A DNA stretch of 64,000 nt from Candidatus Doudnabacteria bacterium (GCA_003151625.1 PLYC01000010.1:133515-197514), one strand, 5' to 3'; counted from the first letter of the stretch, positions 19,695-55,577 are shown. Notes: generated by a model not told the origin, from the sequence alone. Program-made: numbers and translations.

Positions 19695-19845
19695 ATTGGC
19701 GTCGCTCGTCTCGGCTTCGCCGAGCCGAAGTCGGACCAAGCAGCCCGTCTCGGCCGAGGCTATCCGAATTAGCCGAGCCGAGGTCGGATAAGGCAGGGGC
19801 CTTTGAAGCCCCCATTCGTAGGTTCGAATCCTACCGCCCCAGCCA
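19695..19845 (+). pseudogene. tRNA-Gln(UUG) copy with two hairpin insertions in the D-arm and an intact 3' half
   Basis: Inserts at about 19705-19735 and 19744-19788; TAAGGCAGGGGCCTTTGAAGCCCC...GGTTCGAATCCTACCGCCCCAGCCA. Confidence 0.8.
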
Positions 19846-19909
19846 ACAACTCTCTCATAATACCGGAGACCGAAGAGTATCAGCGTTTCAAGAGACAGTC
19901 AATGATTTT

Positions 19910-21141: not shown

Positions 21142-21282
21142 TTTTATAACAAAATTGTTCTAATTTGGTCAAATAAAGCCAGCCAACGTTTTTCACCAAT
21201 GTTTATTGGTGATTTTTTGTAAGGCCATATAGTACTTTGGAACCGTGGTATAATAAACTTGTTGACTAATTAAAATGTAATT

Positions 21283-21708: not shown

Positions 21709-21918
21709 GAAGCAAGCAGTCGCATCTTTGCTCAATTTTTGTTCGAACATCGTCCCACAGCCCCAGCCAACAATTTTGGTTCCTACAGACCTACCAACCC
21801 TGAACCAAAGTTACAAGTCTTAAGAAAATAAGAGCATGGATTTTGCATCCATGCTCTTATTTTTTTCTACATTCAGTAAAAATATGCTAAAATAAGGTCA
21901 TAATTTCAATAGAATTCT

Positions 21919-38071: not shown

Positions 38072-38443
38072 ATGAGCAGAAAACAAGCATTCACCAGCGA
38101 CCAAATCAGACAACTGTCCAAGAACCCCAACATCTCCCGTTGCGGCAGCAATACGGTCCGTTACAGCAGGGCGTTCAAGCAAGAGGCCATGAGGCAGTAC
38201 GAGGCAGGATTATCCGCAGTGGAGATATTCCAAAATGCCGGAATTGATTTGGATACCATCGGCAAGTACGCCCCCAACCACTTAATGCACCAATGGCGGG
38301 CATCACTTCGGGCCAAGTCCGGAGAAAAGGTCGATCCCTTAACAAGGCCAAACAACAACCTGGAAATGCTGAAGGCCCAGGTGGCCTACCTGAAGGCGGA
38401 AAACGATTTTTTAGCCAAGCTCCGGGCACGGAAAAGAAAATAG
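38072..38443 (+). CDS. IS3 transposase OrfA
   Basis: YSRAFKQEA HTH and LKAQVAYLKAENDFLAKL zipper. Confidence 0.85.
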   Translation: MSRKQAFTSDQIRQLSKNPNISRCGSNTVRYSRAFKQEAMRQYEAGLSAVEIFQNAGIDLDTIGKYAPNHLMHQWRASLRAKSGEKVDPLTRPNNNLEMLKAQVAYLKAENDFLAKLRARKRK

Positions 38444-39315
38444 GCTTAAGGCCTTGCCAGCAGTTTGCCATTATCAAAAAGCTTGGCGGAAACCTCAAGC
38501 TCCTCTGCGGGATCGCCCGGGTCTCGCGGGCCGGTTACTACAAATGGCTCAAGGGGCAAGGCAAGCAGCCCAAAGATTATGAGGATTATCTGCTGGTTAA
38601 GAAAATCTTTGACCAAGGCAAGGGCAAGTGGGGCTGGAGAACCATCCAGATGCATTTAAAGGATGATTACGGTATAATTATGAACCACAAGAAGATTGAG
38701 AGGATCAAAAATGACTACGGCTTAATTACCAAAATCAGGAGGAAAAATCCGTACAAGGCCATGCTCAAAAAGACTCTTGAGCACCGGGTGTACCCCAATA
38801 TCTTAAATCGGCAGTTCCGGCAAACTCAGCCCAAGACGGTTTTTTGCACGGACATTACCTATTTGCCTTTTAGCGACAAGCTGACCTACCTTTCTGCGGT
38901 CAAAGACATCGCCAGCCGGGAAATCGTAGGCTGGAGCATGTCACAAAATATCCAGATGGATTTAGTCTTAAACACCTTGGACAATTTAAAACAAAACATG
39001 CCTGGAAAAGAGGTACTCCTGCATTCGGATCAAGGTTCTCATTACACCAGCCCGGACTTCGCCTTAAAGGCCAAGGCGCTTAATCTGATCCAGTCCATGT
39101 CCCGGAAAGGCAACTGCACGGATAACGGTCCCATGGAATCGTTCTTCGGCCACTTCAAGGACGAGGTGGATTTTAAGGACTGCAAAACCTTCGCGGAGCT
39201 GGAAGAGTTGACCGCCGCCTACATGGACTATTACAATACCAAAAGGAAGCAGTGGAACTTAAACAAAATGACGCCGGAACAATACCGGCAATACCTGATA
39301 GAAAAAAGCGGCTAA
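38293..39315 (+). CDS. IS3 transposase OrfB (DDE), probably reached by -1 frameshift near 38430-38440
   Basis: TDITY, LHSDQGSHYTS, SMSRKGNCTDN..MESFFGHFKDE. Confidence 0.93.
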   Translation: MAGITSGQVRRKGRSLNKAKQQPGNAEGPGGLPEGGKRFFSQAPGTEKKIGLRPCQQFAIIKKLGGNLKLLCGIARVSRAGYYKWLKGQGKQPKDYEDYLLVKKIFDQGKGKWGWRTIQMHLKDDYGIIMNHKKIERIKNDYGLITKIRRKNPYKAMLKKTLEHRVYPNILNRQFRQTQPKTVFCTDITYLPFSDKLTYLSAVKDIASREIVGWSMSQNIQMDLVLNTLDNLKQNMPGKEVLLHSDQGSHYTSPDFALKAKALNLIQSMSRKGNCTDNGPMESFFGHFKDEVDFKDCKTFAELEELTAAYMDYYNTKRKQWNLNKMTPEQYRQYLIEKSG

Positions 39316-39894
39316 AACCAGGCCGCCGATCGTGTCTACTAAATGGGGTACGCATCACATTAAGGCGTGTTCCAAGTGTTCCAAAACGGTCCAGCGCGGC
39401 GCGACCTACCAACCCTGGCCGCCATTGGTCAAGACTCCAAAAACCCCTTATAATGGTTGTAACGGACGGGTACTAGACCTGTACGTTCAGCCAACACTTT
39501 TCACCAATGTCTATTGGTGTTTTTTGTTAGGCCACAAATTACTTTGGAACTATGGTATAATACAATTACAAAATATTAAGTCTTAAAACTAACATGTCAG
39601 CAGAAAAATCAACAAACTCTGAATACTCAAGGGCCCAGGATGAAGCTCGAGAGGTCAGGGCGGACATCATTCCATAAGGCCAGCCAACAACTTTTTTTAT
39701 CGTAGAGACCGAGGAGCATTGTAGATAAGCCAGATTTTTAGTTCTTATCCTAGGTGCGTGACTGCTCCCCCATTTAGGATTCGAACCAAAATAACACTAA
39801 AATAATCATATGATTTAATAGTTTGCGATCAAAACTTGCGTTGTTTAGGAATAATTACAAATAATTCTTTATTTAAATTAATTTCAATGGCCTT

Positions 39895-41376
39895 ATGAAG
39901 CTAAACGAACCGTTAAAAATTCTGTTTGTCGGATCCGAAGCGTCACCTTTTGTAAAAATCGGAGGGTTGGGCGAGTTTCTTTATACTTTGCCAAAAGCGC
40001 TTCGGGAGCTGAATCATGACGTTCGCGTGATAATTCCCAAATACGCGAGCGTTGATGCGGAAAAATTTCCCATGACCACCGTGATCGAAGGATTAATAGT
40101 TCCCAATCCGGGGCACGAGGACATCGTTTGCAACATTAAAAAATATAATAACGACAACCCGCTGGATCCGATCAATTATTTTTTGGAAAATGAAGAATAT
40201 TACGAGAAACGCGGTAGTGTTTATGGCTACGACGATGATGCTGACCGTTGGGCTCTTCTGTCCCGCGGTACGATAGAATTTATTCGAAACCAGAACGAGT
40301 GGCGGCCGGATATTATTGTAGCCAACGATTGGCAGGGGGGACTTCTCCCTAATTATATGAAAACTGAATATAAGGATGATCCGGTAATTTCCAAAATTGC
40401 GACCGTGTTTGTAATTCACAATTTATACTTCCAGGGAATGTTTGACCACCATCACATCAGTGAGCTTAATTATGACGATGGCAAGTCAGATGTCCCACCG
40501 ATCACCGACCCGAGGCTGTTAAAGACAAATTTCATGAGCCGCGGCATACGTTTTGCGGATGTGGTTAGCACTGTCTCAGCCAACTACGCCCGTGAAATTA
40601 CCACTCCTGAGTACGGCGAGCGCCTCGACACTTTGTTGCAGGAGCGAAGGTCCCATCTGTATGGGATACTTAACGGTATCAGCTATCAGCGGTATAACCC
40701 CGAAACTAACCCTTATGTTGAATTTAAATACAACGCCGAAAGTTTAAACGAACGGAGCAGAAATAAAAAGATTCTTCAACAAAAATTCAATTTGGCGGAG
40801 CAGGGCGATGTTTTTGTGGTCGCGATTGTTTCCCGATTGAATGATCAAAAGGGATTGGATTTGGTGACCGGGACGATTGAGCCTCTCTTGGATAATTTTG
40901 ATTTTCAATTTGTGGTGGTGGGGTCGGGCGAGTCCAAGTATCTTACATTTTTCGAAGACCTCGACAAAAAGTACCCGCAAGTGGCGACTCATCTTTCGTA
41001 TGACGAAATTTTACCCCAAGTAATTTATTCCGGCGCTGATATGATTCTTATCCCATCCAAGTTTGAGCCGTCGGGTTTAACCCAAATGGAGGCCATGCGC
41101 TATGGCATGATTCCTTTGGTGCGCAAAACCGGAGGGCTGGCCGACAGTGTCGAGGATTACAATCCGATTACTCAGACCGGAACCGGTTTCGTGTTTGAAA
41201 AATATGAGCAATACGCCTTCTTCGGGACATTCGTTCGCGCGCTTGAGACATATAAATATCATAACATTTGGCAGGGTATCCAAAAACGCGCCATGGCCGC
41301 CAATTTTTCCTGGGAAAAATCCGCTAAAGAATACGTCAAGCTTTTCAAACGCGCACTGGACCAATTTAACCTGTAA
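39895..41376 (+). CDS. glgA: Glycogen synthase
   Basis: SEASPFVKIGGLG, NDWQ, IHNL, GILNG, PSKFEPSGLTQM, TGGLADSV. Confidence 0.93.
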   Translation: MKLNEPLKILFVGSEASPFVKIGGLGEFLYTLPKALRELNHDVRVIIPKYASVDAEKFPMTTVIEGLIVPNPGHEDIVCNIKKYNNDNPLDPINYFLENEEYYEKRGSVYGYDDDADRWALLSRGTIEFIRNQNEWRPDIIVANDWQGGLLPNYMKTEYKDDPVISKIATVFVIHNLYFQGMFDHHHISELNYDDGKSDVPPITDPRLLKTNFMSRGIRFADVVSTVSANYAREITTPEYGERLDTLLQERRSHLYGILNGISYQRYNPETNPYVEFKYNAESLNERSRNKKILQQKFNLAEQGDVFVVAIVSRLNDQKGLDLVTGTIEPLLDNFDFQFVVVGSGESKYLTFFEDLDKKYPQVATHLSYDEILPQVIYSGADMILIPSKFEPSGLTQMEAMRYGMIPLVRKTGGLADSVEDYNPITQTGTGFVFEKYEQYAFFGTFVRALETYKYHNIWQGIQKRAMAANFSWEKSAKEYVKLFKRALDQFNL

Positions 41377-41394
41377 TCATTAAGACTAATATGT

Positions 41395-42888
41395 ATGCGG
41401 TGGGCAAATTTTTTGCACATGTACCAGCCGGCAGAACAGCAGCCGGATATTCTGGAGGCGATTGTCGTCCAAAGCTACCGGCCAATTATCGAAGGCTTGC
41501 TTAAGCATAAGCAGGTACGTCTGACGCTGAACATCAACGGCGCTTTATTGGAATTATTGGATAAGTATAATCATCGCGATATTATCGACAATCTTCGAGA
41601 GCTTGGGTCACAAAAGCGGATTGAGTTTACATCCTCGGCCAAATACCATGCTTTGCTGCCTTTTTTAAATGGCCAGGAAATCGACCGTCAAATTAGGCTT
41701 AATAATGAATCACTGGAATTTTTTCTCGGGAAAGATGTCAAACCCCAAGGTTTTTTTGCGCCAGAAATGGCCTATGATGAAAAAATTCTGTCGATTGTCG
41801 AAAGTTTGGGTTTTAAATGGCTGATCTTGGACGAAATTTCCTGCGGAGGGGAAGTCGGCCATGTCGATTATAATAAAATTTACAAGATTACTGGCACCAA
41901 CCTGAGCGTCTTTTTCCGCGACCGGAGGTTGAGCAATTTAATTATGAGCGCGGTGGTACGGTCCAGGGAGACTCTGCTTGAAGCCATGCGCGACAACCTC
42001 AACAGCGGCCGCTACATTGTGACTGCCATGGATATGGAAACCTTTGGCCACCATCGCCCAGGCCTGGAAAAAATGCTGTTTGAAGTATTTGACACTCCCG
42101 AATTCGAGCTAATTCAAATTTCGGATATTGCCGGGTATTACAAAGAAACCAAAGAAATAATTCCTGCCAAAGCGACCTGGGCCTCAAGCAAGCAGGACAT
42201 TGATAATGGAAGCCAATTCCTCTCGTGGTCGGATCCGGAAAATATTATCCATAAATGGCAGTGGGCATTCACTGGCATGGTGCTCAAAGAAGTATACGCA
42301 ATGGATAAAATCCATCCAAGATATAATTTGGTCCGTAAAAAAATGGATATTGCCCTAGCCTCAGACCAATTTTGGTGGGCCTCAGCCAAGCCATGGTGGA
42401 GCTTGGAAATGATTGAGGATGGGGCTTACCGTCTCCTTGATACGTTGCGCTACATTCCTGATGTCGGGAAAGAGAAACTTGAGCAAGGGCGTGATTTTTA
42501 TGAGCATATTATCGCTACCGCCTTCAATTGGCAAAGAACCGGAAAAATCCGTCAGATGATGGCGGAGCAGGGAGCCATTTTGCGCATACCGTTTAAGGAC
42601 CGAACCATCGGCCGGGGCGGCGCGGAAGAAGGGGTATACTGGGCGTTTATTGATATAATGAAGCGGCTGGAAAAAACGGCCGCTTCAAGTGGCGAGTACG
42701 AGAAAGCGATTCTTTGGCGCGATGCGATCTACAAGCTTGAAAATAAACTGGATATTTACGACACCATCAACGCCATCGATCTTTTGCGCGTTGAAATCCC
42801 TCATAATGAAGTCGAAGCCACGATTGAAAAATACAAGGCGAAATATTACGCCATTCGTGGCGGCCAGCCGGAACAGCGCGGCACGTAA
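41395..42888 (+). CDS. Glycoside hydrolase family 57
   Basis: LHMYQP, SAKYHALLP, FFAPEMAY, AMDMETFGHH, SDQFWW. Confidence 0.88.
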   Translation: MRWANFLHMYQPAEQQPDILEAIVVQSYRPIIEGLLKHKQVRLTLNINGALLELLDKYNHRDIIDNLRELGSQKRIEFTSSAKYHALLPFLNGQEIDRQIRLNNESLEFFLGKDVKPQGFFAPEMAYDEKILSIVESLGFKWLILDEISCGGEVGHVDYNKIYKITGTNLSVFFRDRRLSNLIMSAVVRSRETLLEAMRDNLNSGRYIVTAMDMETFGHHRPGLEKMLFEVFDTPEFELIQISDIAGYYKETKEIIPAKATWASSKQDIDNGSQFLSWSDPENIIHKWQWAFTGMVLKEVYAMDKIHPRYNLVRKKMDIALASDQFWWASAKPWWSLEMIEDGAYRLLDTLRYIPDVGKEKLEQGRDFYEHIIATAFNWQRTGKIRQMMAEQGAILRIPFKDRTIGRGGAEEGVYWAFIDIMKRLEKTAASSGEYEKAILWRDAIYKLENKLDIYDTINAIDLLRVEIPHNEVEATIEKYKAKYYAIRGGQPEQRGT

Positions 42889-42896
42889 TTCCATTT

Positions 42897-44600
42897 ATGA
42901 ATATATCAACTGATTATAAGACTTGGTTTGATGGTTTTAAAACCAGACAGGAGTACGGGGATTTTTTAAAAAAACCGGTGGCTTACTTTTGCGCAGAGTA
43001 CGAGCTGTTTGCCTATCTGCCTACTTATGCCGGAGGATTGGGAATCCTGGCCGGAGATTATGCCAGGGAAGCCGGAATTCGAAAATTCCCTCTGCTCTTT
43101 GTCGGTCTTTACTATCGCAACGCGCAAAATAGCCTAACCCCATCAAGCAGTTCACGCGGGGATTTTTTAGAGGAAGCCGGGCTTAAATTGGTGACAAACA
43201 GGCACAATGAGCGCCTGCTCATCAGCCTCCCCATCCACGATCGCGTAATTCATGCACAGGCCTGGGCGTGGACCAGGGAGGGGGCCACAGTGTATCTGCT
43301 GGATACCAATATAGAAGAAAACCAGCCGCACGACCGCGTTATCACCGCCCGCCTTTACACAGACGACCGTGAAATGCGCCTAAAGCAGGAAATACTTCTT
43401 GGCATAGGGGGCTTCCGCCTGCTGGAGCAGCTTGATTATCACTGTTCCGTTTACCACTTAAATGAGGGGCATTCAGCGTTTTTGGCTTTGGAATTAATCC
43501 ATCATGAAATGAAGCACCAGCGCGTTGATTTTCAGACCGCTGTCGTATACGCACGCCAGCATATTGTTTTTACCAACCACACCCTGATTGCTGCCGGGCA
43601 AGAGCAATTTACCACCGAGCTGATCTCGGCAATGATGATTGAATACGCCAAAGAAATGGAAGTTAGCGTGGCTGACATCATTTCTTTGGGCACGATTGAA
43701 GGTTCAAATCTTTTTTCTATGACTGTGCTGTCTTTCCGTCTGGCCAGCAGAATAAGCGGTGTGAGCAAACTTCACGCCGCTAAAGCGCATGAAATTTGGC
43801 CCCAGCACCCGATGAATTACGTGACCAACGGCATTTTTTTGCCGCATTGGGACAAAATCGGCAGTCGGGATGGCGCAAATTTTTGGGAACAGCACCAGGA
43901 AAATAAAAAAAGGCTTCTCTCTCATATCAAAGATAAAACAGGCGAGGTCTGGGACGAAAACATTTTGCTTTTCGGCTGGGCGCGGCGCGTCGTTCCTTAT
44001 AAACGGCCGTTGGTGTTTTTGGAACCGCTCGAACAGTTTTTGGCGCTTGCAAAAGATGCAAGTAAACCGCTCAGAGTTGTCTTTGCCGGACCCACTGATA
44101 ATGACAACGGATTAAATAACGAGCTGTTAGTTAAGCTTAAAAAAATTATTGAAGAAAAATTAAAAGGCATCGGAGTATTTTTACCGAACTACAATGTGGA
44201 ACTGGCGAAACTGATGACTGCCGGCTCGGATGTTTGGCTCAATACTCCAGTGGTCGGTTCTGAAGCGTGCGGCACCAGCGGCATGAAGGCATTACTCAAC
44301 GGCGTACTTCCGCTGTCCACTCGCGACGGCTGGGTTGACGAGGTTGACCTCTCGGCTATCGGTTGGGTTGTTGATGAACCAAATGTCGGGGTAAAGATGC
44401 TTGATGTCGCGGCCAAGGAAATTATCCCGGCCTATTACGGGCATCGTGCCAACCCCAATGGATCAAAGTGGCTAAATCGCATGCAAAATGGCCGTCGGAT
44501 CATTATTGAGCAATTTTCAACCTCGCGCGTGCTTAAACAATATATTGAGGAACTGTATATCCCTACTCTGGCCCAAAAGCACGAGCATAAGTATGAATAA
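42897..44600 (+). CDS. glgP: Alpha-glucan phosphorylase
   Basis: YAGGLGILAGD, RLKQEILLGIGG, HLNEGH, EACGTSGMK. Confidence 0.93.
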   Translation: MNISTDYKTWFDGFKTRQEYGDFLKKPVAYFCAEYELFAYLPTYAGGLGILAGDYAREAGIRKFPLLFVGLYYRNAQNSLTPSSSSRGDFLEEAGLKLVTNRHNERLLISLPIHDRVIHAQAWAWTREGATVYLLDTNIEENQPHDRVITARLYTDDREMRLKQEILLGIGGFRLLEQLDYHCSVYHLNEGHSAFLALELIHHEMKHQRVDFQTAVVYARQHIVFTNHTLIAAGQEQFTTELISAMMIEYAKEMEVSVADIISLGTIEGSNLFSMTVLSFRLASRISGVSKLHAAKAHEIWPQHPMNYVTNGIFLPHWDKIGSRDGANFWEQHQENKKRLLSHIKDKTGEVWDENILLFGWARRVVPYKRPLVFLEPLEQFLALAKDASKPLRVVFAGPTDNDNGLNNELLVKLKKIIEEKLKGIGVFLPNYNVELAKLMTAGSDVWLNTPVVGSEACGTSGMKALLNGVLPLSTRDGWVDEVDLSAIGWVVDEPNVGVKMLDVAAKEIIPAYYGHRANPNGSKWLNRMQNGRRIIIEQFSTSRVLKQYIEELYIPTLAQKHEHKYE

Positions 44601-45210
44601 AGAGTCTCTTTATAATTTTCCTGCTAGGGTTCGAACCAATTTTTTGATAATTGGTAGAAAGCATTCCGCATATTTAAGACAATTTAGATTCTGAACCGAG
44701 CAGGGTTCGAATACTAGCGCCGCAGCCATCAACACTTTTTATCGAGTGACCGAGGTGCGTCTCAAAAAGTCCACATCCGAGACGCGTCACCACACAGTGA
44801 TGCGTGCAATCGTACCGAGAGGTGTCAGCCCCGCGTGGCCAAATTTTTACACCCCGACAGGGATGGAGCCACAAAGATAGAGAATAAAAAAAATCCGGAT
44901 GCCCCGGATTTTTTTGTTGAGAAGTTTTAGTTAGTCATCCCCGCGATGCTGAGTAAATAATCTTTTTAAATAATAAATACATCCCTCCTTTAAGTAACAC
45001 TGCTTGAATTCCCTGATGCTACGGCCGTAAGGCCGTAGTACTTCACTTTCTTAAATCTTGAACGCAAAATAAACAGAAAGCTCCTAATAAGTGCATAACT
45101 TACCTTTGGGCTATATACTGTATCTAAAATAGGGAGTATGCTTAAAGCCGATGGTATGAATAGTTAAATTATTAGCCAATCGTTTAATTAGTGTGCTTAA
45201 TTATAATTAT

Positions 45211-45810
45211 ATGAACAATTCAAAACTGGAGTTATTAACTCCAAAAAACAGCCTCTTGCTGTTGGTTGATTACCAGTCCGCCATGTTTAACGGCGTCGGT
45301 TCGGGAGACCGGACAAACATCAAAAATAACGCCGTAGCAACAGCCAAGGCCGCCAGTATATTAAGCGTGCCAACAGTGTTTACTTCCATTTACCCTAAAG
45401 GGAATGGAGAATTTATTAAAGAACTTACCGATATCTTTCCCAAACTCAAAGTCATTGCCCGTAAATTGCCCGGCTTTGATGCCTTGGAAGATAAGGCGGT
45501 GCTTTCAGCCGTCAAAGCTACCGGACATAAAAAATTGGTTATTTCGGGTTTATGGACCAGTATGTGTTTTGCCTTCACGGCTCTGCATGGTTTGAGCGAG
45601 GGAATGGATGTTTATGGTCTTATGGACGCTGCCGGGGACGCGACACGGGACGCCCACAAGTACGGCATTAAGCGGATGATGCAGGCGGGCGTAATACCCA
45701 TTACTTGGGAGACAGTAACTTCCGAATGGATGCATGACTGGAATAATCCTAAAGCGTCGCGGTTGAAAAAGGAAGTCTATGGAAAATATGATGTGATGTT
45801 GGGAATATAA
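45211..45810 (+). CDS. Isochorismatase-like (YcaC-type) hydrolase
   Basis: LVDYQ, GLWTSMC, DAAGD..AH..RMMQAG. Confidence 0.88.
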   Translation: MNNSKLELLTPKNSLLLLVDYQSAMFNGVGSGDRTNIKNNAVATAKAASILSVPTVFTSIYPKGNGEFIKELTDIFPKLKVIARKLPGFDALEDKAVLSAVKATGHKKLVISGLWTSMCFAFTALHGLSEGMDVYGLMDAAGDATRDAHKYGIKRMMQAGVIPITWETVTSEWMHDWNNPKASRLKKEVYGKYDVMLGI

Positions 45811-45870
45811 TTTTTAGCGTGAAGAAGTAATAAAATAGGATAGAGCAGCGACATTATTAATTCAAAAATT

Positions 45871-46926
45871 ATGACCAAAAAAATTAAAGGCTACGCGGCG
45901 ATTGGCGCGGATAAACCGCTGGAGTTCTACGAATTCGAACGCCGCGAACTGCGCCCTCATGATATTGAATTCGACATACTCTATTGTGGTGTATGTCATT
46001 CAGACGTTCATCAGGCGCGTAATGAATGGGGTATTTCGGTATATCCGATGGTGCCGGGTCACGAACTGGTCGGACACGTAACGCGTATTGGCAAAGAGGT
46101 ATCAAAATTCAAAGTTGACGACATGGCGGGTGTCGGCTGCATGGTGGATTCATGCCGTAAGTGCGCTGCGTGTCTGGCCGGTCTTGAACAATATTGTGAA
46201 CACGACATGCTGCAAACCTACAATGCCGTTGATCCGATTGACGGCATGAAAATCCAGGGAGGTTATTCACAGACAGAAGTTGTTGATGAAAATTACGCGT
46301 TGCATATTCCGAAATCAATAGATCCCGCCAAGGCCGCGCCGTTGCTTTGCGCCGGCATCACAACGTATTCTCCGCTCCGGCATTGGAAAGTCGGCTCGGG
46401 CCATAAAGTCGGTGTTGTCGGCATCGGCGGTCTTGGTCATATGGCGGTGCAATACGCAAAATCTTTCGGTGCTGAGGTTTATATGATTACGACGACTTCC
46501 GGAAAAGCTTCCGATGCCGCAGAGCTTGGCGCGGACGGCGCCATTATTGCAACTGATATGGCTGCCATGGAAGCGCAGGCAAAGAGCTTTGATTTTCTTT
46601 TAAGCACCATTCCGCAAAGCCATGACTTGCAGCTTTATCTTAATCTCTTGAAGCAAGGCGGTACTCTGATCATTGTCGGTGCGCTGACGCAGATAGAGCC
46701 GGGAATCAACGGTATGAATATGGCAGCCAGGCGCTTGAGCATCGGTACTTCGCTCATTGGAGGTATTAAAGAAACTCAGGAAATGCTTGATTACAGTGCA
46801 AAAAATAATATTGCTCCCGCAATCGAACTTATCAAAATAGAAGATATTAATAAAGCCTTTGATCGTATGGTAAATAAAGATGTGCGCTACCGTTTTGTTA
46901 TCGACCTCAAGGCTTCGTTTAAATAA
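45871..46926 (+). CDS. Zn-dependent NAD(P) alcohol dehydrogenase (CAD-like)
   Basis: CGVCHSD, PGHE, C..C..C...C, GIGGLG, YRFVID. Confidence 0.95.
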   Translation: MTKKIKGYAAIGADKPLEFYEFERRELRPHDIEFDILYCGVCHSDVHQARNEWGISVYPMVPGHELVGHVTRIGKEVSKFKVDDMAGVGCMVDSCRKCAACLAGLEQYCEHDMLQTYNAVDPIDGMKIQGGYSQTEVVDENYALHIPKSIDPAKAAPLLCAGITTYSPLRHWKVGSGHKVGVVGIGGLGHMAVQYAKSFGAEVYMITTTSGKASDAAELGADGAIIATDMAAMEAQAKSFDFLLSTIPQSHDLQLYLNLLKQGGTLIIVGALTQIEPGINGMNMAARRLSIGTSLIGGIKETQEMLDYSAKNNIAPAIELIKIEDINKAFDRMVNKDVRYRFVIDLKASFK

Positions 46927-47085
46927 TATGAAATTGACCAGTCCGCGACTTTTATATTTGCCGTTGTTTGCGCACTACTTTCGCTGATAATATTTGCCGG
47001 CATTAAAACCAATAGCCCAAAGTCCTATTAGGACACGGGTGCTATAATTTAATAAGAAAACTTGCTAATAATTAAACTTAATTTT

Positions 47086-47490
47086 ATGAAAGGATTTAAC
47101 ACCAATATCGAAAAAGCGACTTTAGAAAATAATAATTTTCGTAAAGTCTTGTATACGGCTAAACATAGCCAATTAGTACTAATGAGCCTTTTACCAAACG
47201 AGGAGATTGGTATGGAGGTACACAAGGATAATGACCAATTCTTCCGTTTTGAACAGGGCCAAGGCAAGTGCATTATTGACGGCAATGAATATCAAGTTAC
47301 GGATGGCTCGGCCATAATAGTTCCGGCCGGAGCGGAGCATAATGTAATTAATACCTCCGAAACCGAGGAGCTAAAGCTCTACACCATTTATTCCCCGGCT
47401 CACCATAGAGACGGAGTGGTGCGGATGACTAAAGAACAGGCCGAAGCAAAAGAAAATGAAGAAGAGTTTGATGGGGTGACGACGGAATAA
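47086..47490 (+). CDS. Cupin domain protein (copy 1)
   Basis: NNFRKVLYT, EIGMEVH..DQFFRFE, VPAG..HNVIN, TIYSPAHH. Confidence 0.9.
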   Translation: MKGFNTNIEKATLENNNFRKVLYTAKHSQLVLMSLLPNEEIGMEVHKDNDQFFRFEQGQGKCIIDGNEYQVTDGSAIIVPAGAEHNVINTSETEELKLYTIYSPAHHRDGVVRMTKEQAEAKENEEEFDGVTTE

Positions 47491-47605
47491 GCGATTTATA
47501 GTCCTATTTTGCCTTAATCAAACAATGAGCCCCGTGAATCTCCCCGAAGATACCGTGAGTCCGGTATGGGGGCTCAAATAAGAGCAATTTTGTTATCCTT
47601 TAATT

Positions 47606-48739
47606 ATGGTAAAAATCGCAAAAGAAAAGGAAATAATAAGCCAACTGCTGGCCTTTGGCAATATCACCCCCAATGGCAATAAGCCGTGGGATATTACCAT
47701 TCATAATGAAGCATTTTACGGCAGGGTTTTAAGCCGGGGCAGTTTGGGCTTGGGTGAATCTTACATGGAAGGCTGGTGGGATTGCCGGGAGCTGGACCAA
47801 TTTTTTTATCAGCTTATGCACGGAAGCCTAAACCATAAGTTAAAGCTTAACTTAACCATGGTGGCTCATTATTTAAAAAACCGAATCCTAAATTTGGAAA
47901 AGAAAAGCCGCGCTTTTAACCTTAAGCACTATGACATAGGCAATAACCTTTATGTCAAAATGTTGGATAAACGAATGACCTATACCTGCGGCTGTTGGGA
48001 GAATGCGGAAAATTTGGATCAAGCCCAGGAAGCAAAATTGGAACTGGTTTGCCGTAAAATCGGATTAAAACCCGGAATGAAAATTTTGGACATTGGTTGT
48101 GGTTGGGGTAGTTTTATGAAATATGCCGCGGAAAGGTACGGGGTTACCTGCGTAGGCATTACCATTTCTCAATCGCAAATTGATTTAGGCAAGCAAATGT
48201 GCCAAGGTCTCCCTATTGAATTTAGGTTACAAGATTATAGGGATACGCAAGGGCAATACGACGCTGTGGTTTCTTTGGGTATGTTTGAGCATGTAGGTTT
48301 TAAAAATTACCGGACATATATGAAGCTGGTGCATAAATGTTTAAAGGATGACGGACTATTTTTGCTCCAGACTATTGGCAGTAACAGCTCAAACCCGGCT
48401 CATACCTCCGATCCGTGGATTAAAAAGTATGTTTTTACTACCGGCGCACTGCCTTCCGCTAAGCAAATTTCCGGCTCCGTGGAAAATTTGTTCATTATGG
48501 AAGACTGGCATAATTTCGGCGCGGATTATGATAAAACTTTAATGGCTTGGTGCCGTAATTTTGAAACTCACTGGCCGGAGTTTGAAAAAGATTATGGGGC
48601 TGTTTTTTATAGGATGTGGAGGTATTACCTGCTGTCCTGCGCCGGATCATTCCGCAACCGGTCTATCCAATTGGGGCAGGTCGTGTTTTCCAAAACAGGG
48701 GTGCCTGGAGGGTATAAATTGGTCAGGTCTTTAAACTAA
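47606..48739 (+). CDS. cfa: Cyclopropane fatty acyl phospholipid synthase
   Basis: LGLGESYMEGWW, HYDIGN, LDIGCGWG, GMFEHVG, RMWRYYL. Confidence 0.93.
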   Translation: MVKIAKEKEIISQLLAFGNITPNGNKPWDITIHNEAFYGRVLSRGSLGLGESYMEGWWDCRELDQFFYQLMHGSLNHKLKLNLTMVAHYLKNRILNLEKKSRAFNLKHYDIGNNLYVKMLDKRMTYTCGCWENAENLDQAQEAKLELVCRKIGLKPGMKILDIGCGWGSFMKYAAERYGVTCVGITISQSQIDLGKQMCQGLPIEFRLQDYRDTQGQYDAVVSLGMFEHVGFKNYRTYMKLVHKCLKDDGLFLLQTIGSNSSNPAHTSDPWIKKYVFTTGALPSAKQISGSVENLFIMEDWHNFGADYDKTLMAWCRNFETHWPEFEKDYGAVFYRMWRYYLLSCAGSFRNRSIQLGQVVFSKTGVPGGYKLVRSLN

Positions 48740-48768
48740 AATTATTAATAATTAATTTAGATAAAAAT

Positions 48769-49050
48769 ATGCTTTCAAAAACGCCAATGGATTTTAAGAA
48801 TATAAATATAAAAGATGCCGATAAAGAGATTTTGCGACTGGGGATAATCTCCGAGTTGGATGCAATCAACCTGTATGAACAGTTGTCCGCAACAACAAAA
48901 AACAAAAATCTAAAGGTAATACTTTTGGATATAGCGAAAGAGGAAAAAACCCACATGGGAGAATTTCAGGCGCTGCTGTTAAAACTGGATAAGGAACAAG
49001 TTGAAGAACTGGAAGCGGGCAAAAAAGAGGTTGAAGAAAAAACGGAATAA
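48769..49050 (+). CDS. Short ferritin-like/rubrerythrin family protein
   Basis: ELDAINLYEQ and EEKTHMGEF diiron motifs. Confidence 0.85.
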   Translation: MLSKTPMDFKNINIKDADKEILRLGIISELDAINLYEQLSATTKNKNLKVILLDIAKEEKTHMGEFQALLLKLDKEQVEELEAGKKEVEEKTE

Positions 49051-49070
49051 GGTTTTGAATTAAATCATTT

Positions 49071-49750
49071 ATGCTTCCTCGAGCTATGGTCAAAGAGTTG
49101 GCCGATTTGCCAATAGAAAATTTGGACGAATTTAATTCGTCGGTGCAGTATTTTAAAAAAACAAATAAATTGTTTTTTAATTACTGGTTAATTTATTTCA
49201 ATTTATGCCCATTCCTTAATAAGGAAACCATCAACAAAATTGTTGATTTTGGAACGGGAATCGGCGACTTGCCAGTTTATTTAGCGGAAAAGTTGGAGCA
49301 AAAGAAAATAAATTATTTTATAACTGGCATAGATACTAATGTCCAAGTCATTTCATTGGCAAAAAATGAAGTGAAAAATTACCGAAATATAAAAGTTGTT
49401 TGTTGTAATCTAAATGATTTGGTTGAACGGTTTGATATCGCATTGCCTCGCAGGTTTTTCATCATTTATCGCCAGAAGAAGCCGTTGATTTTTTAAAAAC
49501 AGCTTATACAAAAGTTAACAATGTTTTAATTATTTCGGATTTAATTAGAAGCAAGTTAGTTTATTGGCTGGTCAAAGGGTTTGTTTTCTTGACAACCACA
49601 AATAAAATCAACAGATATGACGGTGCTATTTCGGTTTTACGGTGCTACAATGATGGTGAAATTAAGCAGTTACTACACCAAGCAGACATAAAAAATTTTA
49701 AAATCCGTAATATATTTTTTAGAAAATTCATCATCATCCCAAAACAATAG
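49071..49750 (+). pseudogene. SAM-dependent methyltransferase with a 1-nt frameshift near 49445
   Basis: VDFGTGIGD in frame 1; SQVFHHL..ISDLIRS..DGAISVLR continues in another frame to TAG at 49750. Confidence 0.75.
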
Positions 49751-50425
49751 TGGACGGCAGGGTGGGCACCCGTGCCACACAGCCACCTACTTTTGTTATC
49801 GTACAGACCGAGAGGCGTTGTAGATAAGACATAAATTCGAGTTCTAATCCGAGAGGGATCATAAGGATCCTGCTAGGGTTCGAACCAAAATCAGACGATT
49901 AAAAAGTTGATTCCCGTCCCCGGTAGTTAATAAAATATTGTTTTTTATAGATAAAAAGTTGCAGACGTTTCGTCTGTAATTTTTTTTGGCTATGTTCTTT
50001 AAATGTCCTGCCAATTCGTAACAGGTGGAAAACTTATCTGGCTTTGGTTAAAGAAATTTTTGAATGCTTTAGCGATGGCTACTGTTCTATGCGCTTTGTA
50101 CTGAAAAACTTGCATGAAGAAAAGAACAATAAAAAACCCCAGGGTTGCGCCCCGAATTTTTGTTTTGCATAAATGCCTAATCTTTTGAAGAATTACCCCA
50201 AACCCTTACATCCTGCATATGGAAAAAATGCGTATTAAAACATTACAGCCAGAGCTAAGCCTTAAGAAATGTTTAACGCCGTAGTTAAGCTTTTAAATAG
50301 TTATTTAATTAAAATATCGAACATAAAAGAGCTAAAAACTTCATAATTAAGTGCATAACCCCCCCAGCTATATACTATATTCACAATAAGGAACATACTT
50401 AGGGCTATAGTAATAAAATAAAAAT

Positions 50426-50734
50426 ATGCTCACTGATAAACAAATAACAAACATCCGCGAAGCGTTTAACGGTACCGACCAAAGAGTAATTCTTAAGGCT
50501 CTCGGCGACACCAACCGTTATCGCATTTTTGAAATGCTGGGCAAGCTGCCAAGATTGGCCGTCAGCGATATTGCCAAAGTCCTAAAAATCTCCGTACTTT
50601 TGGCATCGCAGCATCTTAAAATTTTAGAGCAAGGCAAAATGCTAGAAAAAGAAGAACAAGGCCAAAAAATTTATTATAAACTCAAGGCCGATAGGATTGT
50701 CCAATCTTTTATTCCAGTACTCAAAATTAAATAA
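50426..50734 (+). CDS. ArsR/SmtB family regulator
   Basis: KALGDTNRYRIF, SQHLKIL, G..IYY.L. Confidence 0.9.
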   Translation: MLTDKQITNIREAFNGTDQRVILKALGDTNRYRIFEMLGKLPRLAVSDIAKVLKISVLLASQHLKILEQGKMLEKEEQGQKIYYKLKADRIVQSFIPVLKIK

Positions 50735-50742
50735 TTCTTTTT

Positions 50743-51060
50743 ATGCTTTCAAGCCAAGAAATAAAAAAAGTGCAGAGCTATCTCGAAGATGGGGATGTGG
50801 ATACGGCATTGACCAAGATTTTTAAAAGCCTGAGCGACATAAATCGCTGCAAAATTTTTAGAATGCTCGCGGTCCAGCCCCAGCTCTCTGTTAGCAGTGT
50901 GGCCAAGGTACTTAATATTTCCACGCCTTTGGCATCGCAGCATCTTAAAATTCTTATGCAAAACGGACTATTGACCAAAGAAAAGGTGGGGATAAGGGTC
51001 TACTATAAATTAAAAGACAAAAATCCAATTATAGCCACCATTCTTAAAGTAATTAAATAA
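50743..51060 (+). CDS. ArsR/SmtB family regulator (tandem paralog)
   Basis: FKSLSDINRCKIF, SQHLKIL, G.RVYY.L. Confidence 0.9.
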   Translation: MLSSQEIKKVQSYLEDGDVDTALTKIFKSLSDINRCKIFRMLAVQPQLSVSSVAKVLNISTPLASQHLKILMQNGLLTKEKVGIRVYYKLKDKNPIIATILKVIK

Positions 51061-51087
51061 TTTTTTTATAACTGAAACTCCACCGGT

Positions 51088-51483
51088 ATGAAAACACAAA
51101 AAATAATATTGGTGGTTGAAGATGAAAAAAGTCTGCGTGAAGCCATTGTGGATATTCTTCGCCGCAAAAACTACAACCCTCTTGAAGCAAAAAACGGCAG
51201 AGAAGGCGTAGAGATAGCGCTCTCTAAACATCCCGACCTTATTTTGCTTGACCTTATTATGCCGGAGATGGACGGCATGACTGCTCTTAAAAAGATTCGG
51301 CAAGACGTTTGGGGGGCAAAAGTTCCCATTATTATTCTGACGAATTTAAGCATGAACAACAAACAGCTGGCGGACGATATGGCAAAGCATAAGCCAATAT
51401 TTTATTTAATAAAATCAGACTGGAAGATCCATGATGTCGTAGATAAGGTTGCAAAGATATTAGAAGAAACAAATTCTTTATGA
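51088..51483 (+). CDS. Single-domain response regulator
   Basis: VVEDE, LLDLIMPEMDG, ILTN, IKSD. Confidence 0.92.
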   Translation: MKTQKIILVVEDEKSLREAIVDILRRKNYNPLEAKNGREGVEIALSKHPDLILLDLIMPEMDGMTALKKIRQDVWGAKVPIIILTNLSMNNKQLADDMAKHKPIFYLIKSDWKIHDVVDKVAKILEETNSL

Positions 51484-53118
51484 ATAAAAAAAATGTTAAA
51501 TCTTCATCCTATAACATAACCTTTAAGCTAAAAGCTTTGGCTAAGGAAAAGGAAGAAGTCAGACACAGGCTGGTAATAACCGCAAAAAACCTCAGCCTCA
51601 AAGCTAAACAACTGGTTAAGATAGCCAAGGAAAAAGAAGACGTTAGGCTCAGGCTGGCGGTAACGGCCAAAAACCTTAGCCTTAAAGCCAAACAACTCGT
51701 GGTAACGGCCAAGGAAAAGGAAGAAGTCAGACGCAGGTTGGTAGTAACGGCAAAGAACCTCAGCCTTTAAAGCTAAGCAGCTACTTGTGATAGCCAAGGA
51801 AAAAGAAGACGTTAGGCTCAAGCTGGCGGTAACGGCAAATGAATTGAAAAAGTCGCGCGAAACGCTCGAGAAAAAAGTTCTTGAACGGACCAAAAACCTT
51901 GAGCGGATTACAGCCAGAAACGAAGCCATGCTTGCGAGTGTTGGCGATGGTTTGGTGGTGGTGGATAAAGAAGGTAAAATAACTTATATTAACAAATCTT
52001 TTGAGGAGACGCTTGGTTTGAAAGTGCAGGAAGTAATCGGCAGGAGCATGGTTAAAGTGGTGCCCAGGGAAGACCAGAGCGGGACAGAGGTGCAATTTAA
52101 AGAAAGAATTTTAACTCAAGTCTTGCTGGGAAAAAAGTTTGTAGCCGATTTAACCAACCCTTTTTATTATATCCGTAAAGATAAAAGCAGATTCCCTGTC
52201 AGTAGTATTATAACGCCTGTCGTTCTGGACGGAAAAATTATTGGGGCGGTAGAAACGTTTAGAGATATTACCAAAGAAAAAGATATTGACAAAGCCAAAT
52301 CGGAATTCGTCTCGCTGGCTTCGCACCAGCTCCGTACCCCGCTTTCTACCATTAATTGGTATACGGAGATGCTTCTGGCGGAAGACGTCGGCAAAATCAT
52401 GCCTGAACAGAAAAAATATCTGGACGAGGTCTACCGCGGTACTCAAAGAATGACTGAGCTGGTCAACGCTCTTTTGAATATTTCCAGCATTGAATTAGGG
52501 ACATTTGTTGTTGACCCGGAACCAACAGACATAATCAAACTCGCGCAAGGCGAAATTGAGGAACAAAAACTGCAAATTGACGCCAAGCGTATAAAATTTT
52601 CTTCCTCATTCAAAAAGGATATTCCCGTGATTCTCGCCGATCCGAAACTCCTGCATATGGTCATGCAAAATCTTTTGACTAACGTCGTGAAATATACTCC
52701 CGAAGGGGGCAAGGTTACGCTTGAGATTGTCTTATCAGATGACCAAGGACGAACGACTCTCCCGAGTAAAATTAAAAGGTCACATGTCCTGATTAAAGTT
52801 TCCGATACGGGTTATGGCATTCCAAAGAACCAACAGGACAAAATTTTTACCAAGCTGTTCCGTGCCGATAACGTGCGGGACAAAGATACCGAAGGAACAG
52901 GCCTCGGGCTTTACATTGTAAAATCAATTATTGAACATTCCGGCGGCAAGATTTGGTTTGAGTCTCCGGGAGATGCACCTGTGGGAGGGAAGGATTTAGC
53001 CTTGGAGGGCAACCCCGGCACCACTTTTTATGCAACGCTTCCTTTGAATTCGGTGAAAAAGTCCGTCGAACGTGGATCTGTCTCTGATAAAAAAGAAGCC
53101 GCCAAGACAAATGATTAA
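51480..53118 (+). pseudogene. PAS sensor histidine kinase with N-terminal 28-aa tandem repeats, split by a +1 frameshift at about 51767
   Basis: 84-nt repeats continue across the stop; PAS domain, SHQLRTPL H-box, N/G1/F/G2 boxes; 51787-53118 may be expressed alone. Confidence 0.75.
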
Positions 53119-53151
53119 TAAACGCTCCAAAGGTGTAGTATACTAAAACAT

Positions 53152-53553
53152 ATGATAAACGAATCTACAAAAGATAAAATGCAAATATTAGTCATTGAAG
53201 ACGAGCTTCCTCTAATGGAAGCAATAAAGGCAAAACTTGAAAAAAATGGCTTTGAGGTTATTACTGCACGTAGTATCACATTCAGCTCTCTTCTGGATTT
53301 GGGGCAGGTTGACGCAATCTGGCTGGATCACTATCTCTTGGGAAAAGAAAATGGCCTTGATTTTGTAAAAAAATTAAAAGCTAAAGGCAGCCGATTGAAT
53401 AAGACTCCTATCTTTGTTGTCTCCAATACGGCATCTCCTGCTGAAATAAAATCATACAAACGGTTGGGAATAACTAAATACTACGTTAAAGCCGAACATC
53501 GAATTGCCGCGATTGTCGACGAAATAAAATTGTTTCTGGATCGTAGTAAATAA
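53152..53553 (+). CDS. Single-domain response regulator
   Basis: VIEDE, WLDHYL, VVSN, VKAE. Confidence 0.88.
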   Translation: MINESTKDKMQILVIEDELPLMEAIKAKLEKNGFEVITARSITFSSLLDLGQVDAIWLDHYLLGKENGLDFVKKLKAKGSRLNKTPIFVVSNTASPAEIKSYKRLGITKYYVKAEHRIAAIVDEIKLFLDRSK

Positions 53554-53831
53554 ATAACCGGACACGACCATTTATTTTAACATCTAGATCATTAACCAAA
53601 AATTATGCAAAAACCTCCACTCAAACTTTATGTAATTGCGGTAATCATCCTTTGGACGCTTAACTAAATCAATAAATAAAAAAACTGCGGACATTTGCTC
53701 ATAGTTTTTTTATTTTTATTTTTGGCTATCATATTTTTGCAGGCTTATCACTTTGTGGGGCTATTTACCCATTTAGGATTAGAACCACAATAAAAGAAGC
53801 CGCTCCGCATAATTAAGATAAAGTTGTGGTG

Positions 53832-53900
53832 GGGTCAAGTCTGAATATTCAACAAATTATTTCAACATAAACCAAAATGTCAAAAATTCAGACTTGACCC
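53832..53900. repeat. Miniature element with 15-bp terminal inverted repeats
   Basis: gggtcaagtctgaat ... attcagacttgaccc. Confidence 0.7.
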
Positions 53901-54001
53901 TCTGTTTTGTTTTTTGTTCGAACATCGTCCCACAAGTCCAGCCAGAAAATACTCAAGCAAAAGCTTGAGTATTTTGTTTTAAAGTATGTTAAAATTTATG
54001 T

Positions 54002-55172: not shown

Positions 55173-55577
55173 TTATTCAGTTGTAACACCGTCAAACTCT
55201 TCGTCATTTTCCTTTGCTTCAGCTTGTTGTTTGGTCGTACGTACAATGCTGTCTTTATGATGGGGCGGAGAATAAAGGGTGTACATTTTAAGATCTTCTT
55301 TTTTTGAAGTGTTAATAATATTGTGTTGCGATCCAGCAGGCACAATAACAGCTGACCCGTCAGCAATCGGGTATTCGTTGCCGTCAATAACGCATTTGCC
55401 CTGACCCTGTTCAAAACGGAAAAACTGGTCGTTGTCTTCATGGACCTCCATGCCGATTTCCTCTTGCGGCTTCAAACACATCAATACCAGCTGGCTGCGT
55501 TTAGCTGTATAAAGCACTTTGCGGAAATTATTGTTTCCCAAAGTATTTTTTTCAATGTCCGTTTTAAATCCCTTCAT
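55173..55577 (-). CDS. Cupin domain protein (copy 2)
   Basis: Close paralog of 47086-47490 including the EEFDGVTTE end. Confidence 0.9.
   Translation of the reverse strand: MKGFKTDIEKNTLGNNNFRKVLYTAKRSQLVLMCLKPQEEIGMEVHEDNDQFFRFEQGQGKCVIDGNEYPIADGSAVIVPAGSQHNIINTSKKEDLKMYTLYSPPHHKDSIVRTTKQQAEAKENDEEFDGVTTE

Follow-up and report, generated by a model that had tools for sequence, protein, structure and literature searches.

A 64,000-nt stretch of the genome of Candidatus Doudnabacteria bacterium (GCA_003151625.1 PLYC01000010.1:133515-197514), hereafter the window, carries two cargo modules, one of glycogen genes and one of two-component genes, that are framed by the same arm and core sequences. 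What are these repeats, and which enzyme placed them? A preliminary description took them as one non-autonomous element scaffold loaded with different cargo, in which recombination between the cores shuffles the modules. Our analysis traces the repeats to the 3′ end of tRNA-Gln, and we consider it fairly probable that the region from 19.6 to 54 kb is a tandem array of remnants of large serine recombinase (LSR) elements, which integrated serially at tRNA-Gln and whose recombinase gene has since been lost. The idea of one non-autonomous scaffold that is shared by differing cargo holds for the most part.

Ends of tRNA-Gln in the window

The arms, cores, 20-mer and 14-mer lie where they had been described, off by a few bases at most, and shuffled sequences exclude chance as their source. 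The left arms at 39681-39732 and 49780-49831 are 85% identical over 52 nt and 79.7% identical over 74 nt, and are alignable over ∼115 nt; a 21-mer of the arm, TTATCGTAGAGACCGAGGAGC, has two matches at ≤3 mismatches, with 0.00 expected (100 dinucleotide shuffles). The core TAGGRTTCGAACC occurs at 39775, 44625 and 49874, and with one mismatch at 53774. Two core types can be told apart: core b contains a 20-mer that is identical at 44620 and 49869 (two matches at ≤3 mismatches, 0.00 expected from dinucleotide shuffles), while core a, at 39769-39794 and 53768-53793, is 92% identical over 26 nt, giving the order a (39769), b (44620), b (49869), a (53768) along the window. The 14-mer of the right arm, CCGCATATTTAAGA, lies at 44666 and, with one mismatch, at 53805 (0.05 expected from dinucleotide shuffles). 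The cargo had also been placed correctly, with the glycogen genes at 39895-44600 and the two-component genes at 51088-53553 (Pfam). A third, shorter arm copy noticed in the 44741 region was confirmed as 44723-44760 (nhmmer E 8.7e-18). The weaker copy proposed near 19862 was recovered at 19829 (nhmmer E 1.9e-14, a score that comes partly from tRNA), but the one proposed near 21781, where CAGCCA is at 21764-21769, is only weak (nhmmer E 0.31). Against the whole 1.5-Mb genome, a five-copy arm profile matched only at 19829, 39681, 44723 and 49780 and at one place on contig C2. That contig C2 might be a strain variant of the window was rejected, since a 40-nt arm is all that the two share.

The hexamer CAGCCA, which the arm follows, is the 3′ end of tRNA-Gln. 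An intact tRNA-Gln(UUG) gene, the anchor of the array, lies at 19599-19673 on the plus strand and ends in ...CCCCAGCCA (ARAGORN; Rfam 60.4 bits). Between 19.6 and 54 kb there are nine ends of the tRNA-Gln type, every one on the plus strand, with CAGCCA at 19668, 19840, 21180, 21764, 39488, 39681, 44723, 49780 and 53939, and this array of ends partitions the ∼34 kb behind tRNA-Gln into blocks of unrelated cargo. The arm follows not the intact gene, whose right flank differs from it, but a truncated second tRNA-Gln copy at 19771-19845 (tRNA positions 9-75). At 21180 and 39488 the right flank is of a hairpin type, as after tRNA-Gln(CUG) on contig C13, and this flank recurs at C13:54710, ∼C13:53990 and C5:148627. 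A link to tRNA ends had been anticipated, and the tRNA is tRNA-Gln, but that CAGCCA is its end had gone unrecognized; the 'right arm', too, stands as a sequence, but its nature as a decayed tRNA D-arm, described below, had been missed.

The two tRNA-Gln copies at the start of the array differ in detail. In the intact tRNA-Gln(UUG), the T-loop is an unusual TCCGAAT and the acceptor strands pair as TGGGGTG/CACCCCA. The truncated copy lies 172 nt further downstream and retains the canonical TTCGAAT and a G010-like acceptor; a GC-rich repeat (19736-19796), 95% identical to 19256-19315, takes the place of its 5′ part.

A large serine recombinase beside the unit in relatives

The genomes compared carry G numbers, G000 being the window genome. 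A 141-nt arm query matched full-length relatives in G010 and G021, whereas its matches in further members of the genus were partial. The arm begins directly after an intact tRNA-Gln, of either anticodon (UUG or CUG), in G010, G009 and G007, and follows an intact tRNA-Gln also in G076, G017, G018, G021, G104, G085 and G023; the tRNA-Gln neighbourhood itself differs between G009 and G010. A sequence-only arm model has matches in 15 of 95 genomes of the family. The strict pattern of CAGCCA plus its right flank is present in 24 of 146 genomes of the order, at 38 places compared with 2 for a reversed-pattern control, and about five of the 38 look like chance. Same-strand multi-copy arrays of the unit occur in six of the 146 genomes, and at least five genera have the unit together with cargo of other kinds, such as metal-efflux genes, surface proteins and a diversity-generating retroelement. 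Arm matches elsewhere, tied to tRNA ends and variable cargo, were what the scaffold idea predicted, and they are found, at tRNA-Gln. The part of that idea that concerns one scaffold with differing cargo is borne out by the 24 genomes, but recombination between the cores is not.

In relatives, the unit is accompanied by a recombinase. G010 encodes a 449-aa LSR with Resolvase, Recombinase and Zn_ribbon_recom domains, convergent with the tRNA and with its stop ∼198 nt from the tRNA end; the gene across the tRNA from it, of the inositol-monophosphatase family, matches the window's neighbour. LSRs 73-100% identical to the G010 enzyme adjoin the arm in G010, G076, G098, G093 and G021 (in the last, the gene is cut by a contig end), and the LSRs found with the unit in G023 and G104 are 58-69% identical to it. 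One LSR clade thus lies beside the arm flank, pointing at the tRNA, in these seven genomes, and the recombinase that the preliminary description had suggested looking for between the arms is found there as an LSR between or beside them. On contig G098:C75, a 7.1-kb element consists of a tRNA-Gln end with its arm, the LSR (270 nt from the first unit), two EamA transporters, a retroelement and a second, direct arm copy. The array of G104 runs tRNA-Gln(CUG), 5.5 kb, unit, 1.06 kb, unit, 15 kb with LSR, unit, and so contains two LSR-less modules plus one LSR element (15 kb, units 3-4). The hallmark of LSR elements of the phiC31/Bxb1/Ccr/DsiB type, left and right attachment sites (attL and attR) as bounds with the recombinase near one end, is seen in G098 and G104, and the modules of the window are bounded by the same units as the LSR elements of relatives. 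Such elements and arrays, with direct unit copies at their ends, exist in other genera. The retroelement on G098:C75 (5223-6971) is a diversity-generating one, with a bAvd-like gene, a reverse transcriptase and a DUF4352 protein.

Judged from gene order, the wider LSR family appears to target tRNA ends. Among 80 loci from named Patescibacteria metagenome-assembled genomes (MAGs) that encode relatives of the G010 LSR at 50-80% identity, the LSR stop is followed by a tRNA within 4 kb in 34, and the first such tRNA is convergent in 34/34. Seventy loci have at least 600 nt after the stop; a convergent tRNA lies within 600 nt in 14 of them and a same-strand-only tRNA in none. A tRNA on the other side of the LSR is found in only 2/80 loci. 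The targets are tRNAs for Ser (20), Arg (4), Gln, Asp, Lys and Leu (2 each), and Met and Trp (1 each). In the window genome, 4/7 LSR-like genes abut a stable-RNA gene, namely tRNA-Lys, transfer-messenger RNA (tmRNA), tRNA-Asn and tRNA-Glu.

Some of these other LSR genes of the window genome have features of their own. Those by tRNA-Lys and tmRNA, plus one on C3, have flanking inverted repeats of 61-125 nt, ∼2.7-3.7 kb apart (C1:86040-89884, C9:22118-25804 and C3:92071-94804; partners 93-100% identical on C1 and C9), which suggests small transposon-like or invertible serine-recombinase units unlike the tRNA-Gln elements. Five LSR frames (on C1, C3, C5, C9 and C21) extend antisense into tRNA-like sequence, which for four of the five belongs to the neighbouring tRNA or tmRNA gene; their tails are of the form ...GIEPSTSG, ...ELNPGPG, ...WDSNPGPIG, ...GIEPRFSG and ...GFEPITCS. 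Since these tails run into tRNA-like sequence, the C-terminus of the recombinase would change on excision.

Within the window, no recombinase gene was found by Pfam on 43 open reading frames (ORFs) or by tblastn with 12 LSRs, which agrees with the earlier view of the modules as non-autonomous and without their own recombinase; the idea that the window conceals an LSR body was rejected, as tblastn with LSRs gave none. What is present is the remnant of an LSR gene end, comprising the terminator and the last eight codons, at 53706..53757 on the minus strand (blastn 79% identity over 52 nt to G010, E 2.7e-8). Its codons read HKVISLQK compared with HKVLSLQK in G010 (7/8, tblastn), and it adjoins the core at 53768. 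The left (P) arm was also considered as a decayed LSR tail and rejected: 19 LSR C-termini searched against nine left arms (tblastn) gave HKVISLQK only and scattered matches at E > 0.01. Tyrosine integrase PF00589 has five matches (four genes) in the genome, all on C3, C23 and C7 and none in the window, and no tyrosine integrase lies beside the unit in the relatives examined.

Boundary unit, crossover position and alternative readings

To the right of CAGCCA, a ∼27-nt flank of the form NCAAC-N6-TTATCG-N4-GACCGAG, the candidate right half-site of the recombinase, is conserved in all arm-type copies (consensus of 12 copies: cCAACttTTgTTATCGTa.AGACCGAggaGC); a second class is shorter by one base. 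To the left, several units have a tRNA-Gln look-alike that reaches from the D-arm to CCA. Thus, in U6 (the units are numbered U1 to U8 along the window), 44666-44728 can be read as D-arm remnant CCGCATATTTAAGA, anticodon loop TTCTGAA, T-arm and acceptor end, and on this alignment the 'right arm' CCGCATAWTTAAGA is the decayed D-arm of a near full-length pseudo-tRNA-Gln. The diverged version CCGCATAWTTAAGA differs from real D-arms and is found also in G021, G023 and G104. Because the same diverged version is common to four genera, it suggests a D-arm that is maintained or element-borne, rather than one that decayed independently.

The TAGGRTTCGAACC cores may be T-arm-like motifs that flank a CAGCCA core. 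One type is the right arm of a ∼46-nt palindrome, 60-105 nt after CAGCCA, whose arms are complementary at 10/12 or 9/12 positions; the other type lies 25-35 nt upstream of the D-arm remnant, and its G021 version appears by eye with a left partner. An origin of the cores as tRNA fragments was rejected: a tRNA-Gln profile matches their minus strand only (E 0.56-4.3), and the likeness to a T-arm is not significant.

The units, all on the plus strand, combine these parts differently. U1 (19771..19877) is the truncated tRNA-Gln (positions 9-75; Rfam 35.5 bits, model 9-63; nhmmer 9-75, E 2.4e-16) with a weak right half-site copy, ACAACTCTCTCATAATACCGGAGACCGAAGAG. U2 (21180..21255) has CCAGCCA and the hairpin-type flank and is 87% identical to 39488-39562. 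U3 (21736..21800) has a pseudo-tRNA end, TTCGAACATCGTCCCACAGCCCCAGCCA, before its CAGCCA and a degenerate right half-site after it; its 21736-21769 is 91% identical to 53911-53944 of U8. U4 (39488..39562) consists of CAGCCA, the hairpin-type flank and a promoter-like TGGTATAAT. U5 (39681..39825), formerly left arm A, has CAGCCA, a right half-site (39687-39717) and a palindrome with left arm 39741-39752 and right arm 39775-39786 (10/12 complementary, 22-nt spacer), the right arm being core a. U6 (44612..44778) starts with core b (44620-44639), followed by the decayed D-arm CCGCATATTTAAGA (44666-44679), the pseudo-tRNA-Gln(CUG) with anticodon loop, T-arm and acceptor at 44687-44728 (tRNA-Gln profile E 2e-4), and arm C (44729-44778), which is identical at 50/50 positions to the tRNA-Gln(CUG) flank in G010:C40. 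U7 (49780..49925), formerly arm B, has CAGCCA, the right half-site and a palindrome (left 49841-49852, right 49874-49885, 9/12 complementary) whose right arm is core b, with an inverted half-site copy after the palindrome (∼49893-49908). U8 (53768..53944) has core a (53768-53793), the decayed D-arm CCGCATAATTAAGA (53805-53818), a hairpin with a 23-nt stem (53832-53900) and a pseudo-tRNA end, with CAGCCA at 53939-53944; no right half-site follows this CAGCCA, which makes U8 the outer limit of the array as recognized here.

The position of the crossover can be approached through the elements of two relatives. In G098, attL is tRNA/ACAACACCTG... and attR is ...AGACTGTCCAGCCA/CCAAACTTTT..., while the LSR-adjacent site of G093 has the attR-type sequence of G098 on its left side (13/14) and the attL-type sequence on its right (26/26). 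Since the G093 site mixes the two, the switch falls within CAGCCA+1..+4, and the crossover core is probably just after the tRNA. A core at this place leaves the tRNA uninterrupted and explains the conservation of the flank as a half-site.

On this basis, we propose that the LSR would bind a ∼50-bp site centred on the tRNA 3′ end, with the tRNA T-arm as left half-site and the 27-nt flank as right half-site, and would cut 2-4 nt after CCA. Incoming circles would bring a tRNA mimic and the same flank as attP; every integration would recreate a usable site, so that arrays could grow by accretion. The LSR-less modules (glycogen, redox/lipid and two-component) would now be movable only with an LSR supplied in trans, and the T-arm-like palindromes ∼90 nt to either side of the core could be accessory or secondary binding sites.

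Several observations weigh against this reading. No cognate LSR was found in the assembly, which is 100% complete by marker genes but split into 34 contigs; the closest LSR elsewhere in the window genome is 36% identical to the G010 LSR. The crossover position derives from elements of two different genomes. Beyond CCAGCCA, the left halves of U5, U7, U2 and U4 have little in common, which makes a poor recombinase half-site. LSR attachment sites span about 40-50 bp, with imperfect dyad symmetry about a central dinucleotide, and in the ∼50-bp site proposed here the symmetry is slight (C..GGTY at ∼-27..-21 versus GACCGAG at +21..+27). In G017 and G018 the 27-nt flank follows tRNA-Gln with LSR absent within the ∼9-18 kb fetched downstream, and the flank could serve the tRNA gene itself. 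The similarity between 44612-44639 and 49861-49888 starts at the palindrome centre, as a crossover there would leave it, so that the palindrome stays in play as a second candidate site. The contig joints across 39.5-53.9 kb are short-sided and ambiguous.

These joints come from the contigs of eight public runs, in which rare forms drop out. X6 and X14 contigs, from two studies, join 39519-39561 to 53911-53914 (39519/39525>53913/53914 in X6, 39525-39561>53911 in X14). The sides are 24-34 nt, and what lies between is not known. Such a joint would remove a 14.4-kb block, and the paralogous units at 21180 and 21736 could mimic it, so this skip is a hint only. Contigs of related populations have indels within module 4, the block between U6 and U7, that are not bounded by units: one skips 45203>45864 (isochorismatase; X8 and X15, with one extra base at the joint) and another 46927>48718 (cupin and methyltransferase genes; X8 and X14). 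One low-depth contig places the methyltransferase gene of 47620 directly after a U8-type unit.

The alternative closest to the preliminary description is that the TAGGRTTCGAACC palindromes are themselves the crossover sites, cut at their centre, with copies of the right half flanking the cargo and exchange between them shuffling the modules. Their size, ∼46 nt with 12-nt arms complementary at 10/12 and 9/12 positions, is that of a serine-recombinase site; they lie between tRNA and LSR in G010, G021 and G076; and the sequence-only arm model matches its own opposite strand there in G076, G021 and G000. The 20/21-mer shared by 44620 and 49869 and the 92% identity of 39769 and 53768 over 26 nt fit as well, and the likeness of 44612-44639 to 49861-49888, running from about the palindrome centre with unrelated left halves, has the look of hybrid attachment sites. 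However, G098 and G093 have an LSR and direct repeats of CAGCCA plus right flank, with no core or palindrome, and the palindrome is absent also from the units of G104 and G023. Insertion into the palindrome should give the opposite of the X|R ... L|R order seen around module 4. Finally, excision between the identical 20-mers, which had been suggested as a check, finds no counterpart: no contig of the eight runs joins 44620 to 49869, with the caveat that contigs drop rare forms. We consider crossover at the palindromes, with shuffling of modules between them, unlikely. The cores' order, a..b..b..a, is accounted for equally well by shuffling and by a nested history of a composite block. If CAGCCA is the core, the outer a-a pair marks the two ends of one composite 14-kb block, and the inner b-b pair a former junction into which module 4 (U6 to U7) inserted; if the palindrome is the core, other histories follow.

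The units might instead be fossils or products of homologous recombination, in which segments of the tRNA-Gln locus were stacked with no site-specific enzyme and the array is now fixed. Near full-length pseudo-tRNA-Gln copies at several boundaries would be expected from such stacking, as would the 50/50 identity of arm C to the tRNA-Gln(CUG) flank of G010, and the window without an LSR and the module 4 indels (45203>45864, 46927>48718) without unit bounds also speak for it. It leaves aside, however, the tight linkage of one LSR clade to the unit in a fixed orientation, the pseudo-tRNA D-arm CCGCATAWTTAAGA kept in four genera though unlike real D-arms, and the LSR tail remnant within the array. 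This too has a low probability in our judgement.

A role of the arm as a structured RNA, or as an element for regulation or processing that is transcribed together with tRNA-Gln and was copied with it, is highly improbable: the arm does directly follow tRNA-Gln in many genomes, some without an LSR within the ∼9-18 kb fetched downstream, 44722-44915 folds better than shuffles (z -3.35), and in G010 the 17 nt after CCA recur inverted at the end of the 115-nt arm (16/17), but the arms match no Rfam family at gathering or E ≤ 1 thresholds, the consensus fold of four full-length copies is weak (-5.6 kcal/mol, covariation term +0.25), the z-score is owed largely to a terminator hairpin, and detached arm copies without a tRNA, and the linkage to an LSR, are left unexplained. 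Rfam 15 on the window as a whole gave tRNA matches only, and the arm as a known RNA was rejected.

Two small features accompany the arms. The ∼190 nt after U6 (44729-44915, from arm C to a strong terminator) match the G010 flank over their first 50 nt, where the G010 contig ends; this segment may be a small RNA gene or an assembly-breaking repeat. The arm in frame reads QP(T/P)TF(F/V)IV..., and the C2 copy extends a 76-codon open frame. A gene under selection was rejected for the arm, since 5/5 codon differences between 39681 and 49780 are nonsynonymous and the stops are at different places. A 27-codon ORF at 39595-39678, before U5, resembles the end of the 76-codon frame C2:7138-7365(-) (AQDEAREVRADIIP compared with AFDQLSERVNNYRDGIRF), and a small gene or gene remnant may travel with this left-arm type.

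Relation to known islands and cargo of the array

With its recombinase lost, the array is best placed in a known class of islands, those of serine recombinases that stack up behind the 3′ end of a stable-RNA gene, with tRNA-Gln as that gene here. Among the published systems compared, the closest is that of the Dehalococcoides ssrA islands (PMC3146451), which lie in tandem after tmRNA and have a 20-bp repeat of the tmRNA 3′ end, a serine integrase like CcrB, DsiB, on the reverse strand next to attL, and islands without the integration module that are read as possible cis-mobilizable elements (CIMEs). The window array and its relatives share with these islands the tandem arrangement behind a small stable-RNA gene, direct 3′-end repeats with extra conserved bases, a reverse-strand LSR by attL, integrase-less islands and strain-specific metabolic cargo. 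They differ in that the target here is tRNA-Gln (both isoacceptors) instead of tmRNA, and the probable cut is after CCA instead of in the T-loop; neither a second, small serine recombinase nor an integration module of six genes was noticed beside the LSR; and the boundary has a near full-length tRNA mimic and flanking palindromes, in a window without integrase.

The accretion model for streptococcal integrative and conjugative elements and integrative and mobilizable elements, as given in PMC5704250, has three steps that are the same as in our scenario: integration, decay that keeps attL and attR without a recombinase to give a CIME, and further integration into an attachment site to give tandems. 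Modules 3, 4 and 5 of the window have this structure, with no recombinase and with attachment-like units at both sides. The streptococcal elements mostly have tyrosine integrases and conjugative transfer, whereas transfer machinery is not evident in these elements of the candidate phyla radiation (CPR). Prochlorococcus islands (bioRxiv 10.1101/2020.12.28.424599) likewise lie by tRNA genes and show repeated integration, partial tRNAs, degraded integrases and metabolic or adaptive cargo. Their tycheposons mostly have tyrosine recombinases and replication genes, with a large serine recombinase in a minority (27/937, that is 937 minus 910), whereas the unit here is LSR-linked, longer and more structured. 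By the Islander-type criterion, the window has the tRNA fragments and lacks the tyrosine integrase.

Integrons, and integrase-less arrays such as clusters of attC sites lacking integron-integrases (CALINs), resemble the array as a row of cassettes with a recurring recombination site and one anchor. In contrast to integrons, there is no IntI tyrosine integrase and no attI here, and the cassettes are multi-gene with their own promoter-like sequences. The attC sites of integrons are imperfect palindromes that fold, and they close cassettes that mostly have a single gene and no promoter; by eye, the boundary units are tRNA mimics plus flank, unlike attC, and the modules hold 3-6 genes after promoter-like repeats. 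In the staphylococcal cassette chromosome elements SCC and SCCmec, CcrAB or CcrC act at the 3′ end of rlmH. SCC composite islands are like the present case in having LSRs at the 3′ end of a conserved gene and tandem arrays marked by integration-site repeats, and in their recombinase-less pseudo-elements movable in trans, as proposed here; they differ in their protein-coding target, CcrA/CcrB pair, short direct repeats without a long target mimic, drug-resistance cargo and host (see also PMC3146451). No publication on such arrays in CPR/Patescibacteria was found in the literature, subscription journals not being covered.

A more far-reaching possibility, which we put forward as speculative and rather doubtful, is a CPR serine-recombinase counterpart of the integron: tRNA platforms on which an LSR common to the modules, acting in trans, would stack and swap recombinase-less multi-gene modules (for glycogen turnover, for signalling and perhaps for histidine biosynthesis), at a site made of a full tRNA mimic flanked by res-like accessory palindromes, an attachment-site architecture undescribed for LSRs. 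CPR genomes are tiny and their means of gene gain poorly understood; if the sites are active, they offer a concrete route of metabolic gene flow in these bacteria. The recombinases would form a family of tRNA-end-specific serine integrases with natural targets readable from genomes, and many 'pseudo-tRNA' fragments and assembly breaks in CPR MAGs would be explained.

The cargo blocks were annotated by Pfam. That nearest to the tRNA has a glycosyltransferase and an acetyltransferase. The 17.9-kb block of module 2 contains an LD-carboxypeptidase, a GC-rich insert with histidine-lyase and histidyl-tRNA synthetase (HisRS) genes, a histidine operon and an IS3 element; the IS3-family transposase at the module's end (38072..39315, +, two overlapping frames; rve and HTH_21) is a passenger rather than the recombinase of the array. 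Module 3 (39895..44600, +) encodes a glycogen synthase, a GH57 enzyme and a glucan phosphorylase. Module 4 (45193..49496, +), a redox/lipid set, encodes an isochorismatase, a Zn-dependent alcohol dehydrogenase, a cupin, a cyclopropane-fatty-acid-synthase-like methyltransferase, a rubrerythrin-like protein and a further methyltransferase. Module 5 (50426..53553, +) consists of two ArsR-type regulators, a response regulator, a repeat protein, a PAS histidine kinase and a second response regulator.

Within module 5, four tandem 84-nt repeats at 51516-51839, 61-89% identical to a reference copy, encode a lysine/glutamate-rich segment that runs from a 96-aa ORF into the start of the PAS histidine kinase. 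A promoter/operator-like repeat, GCTATATACT...AATAGGGAGTATGCTTA, is found at 45110-45144, 50367-50401 and 55952-55986, before module 4's first gene, before module 5 and ∼700 nt upstream of a DoxX gene, preceded by AAGTGCATAAC in at least the first two copies. Neighbouring modules may thus be regulated together. Around the last two copies, 50213-50358 and 55795-55940 are 73% identical over 147 nt. The cupin genes at 47062-47490 (+, module 4) and 55173-55577 (-, beyond the last unit) are 73% identical in DNA over 427 nt, in inverted orientation, and a third cupin gene lies with an alcohol dehydrogenase gene beside the arm copy on contig C2.

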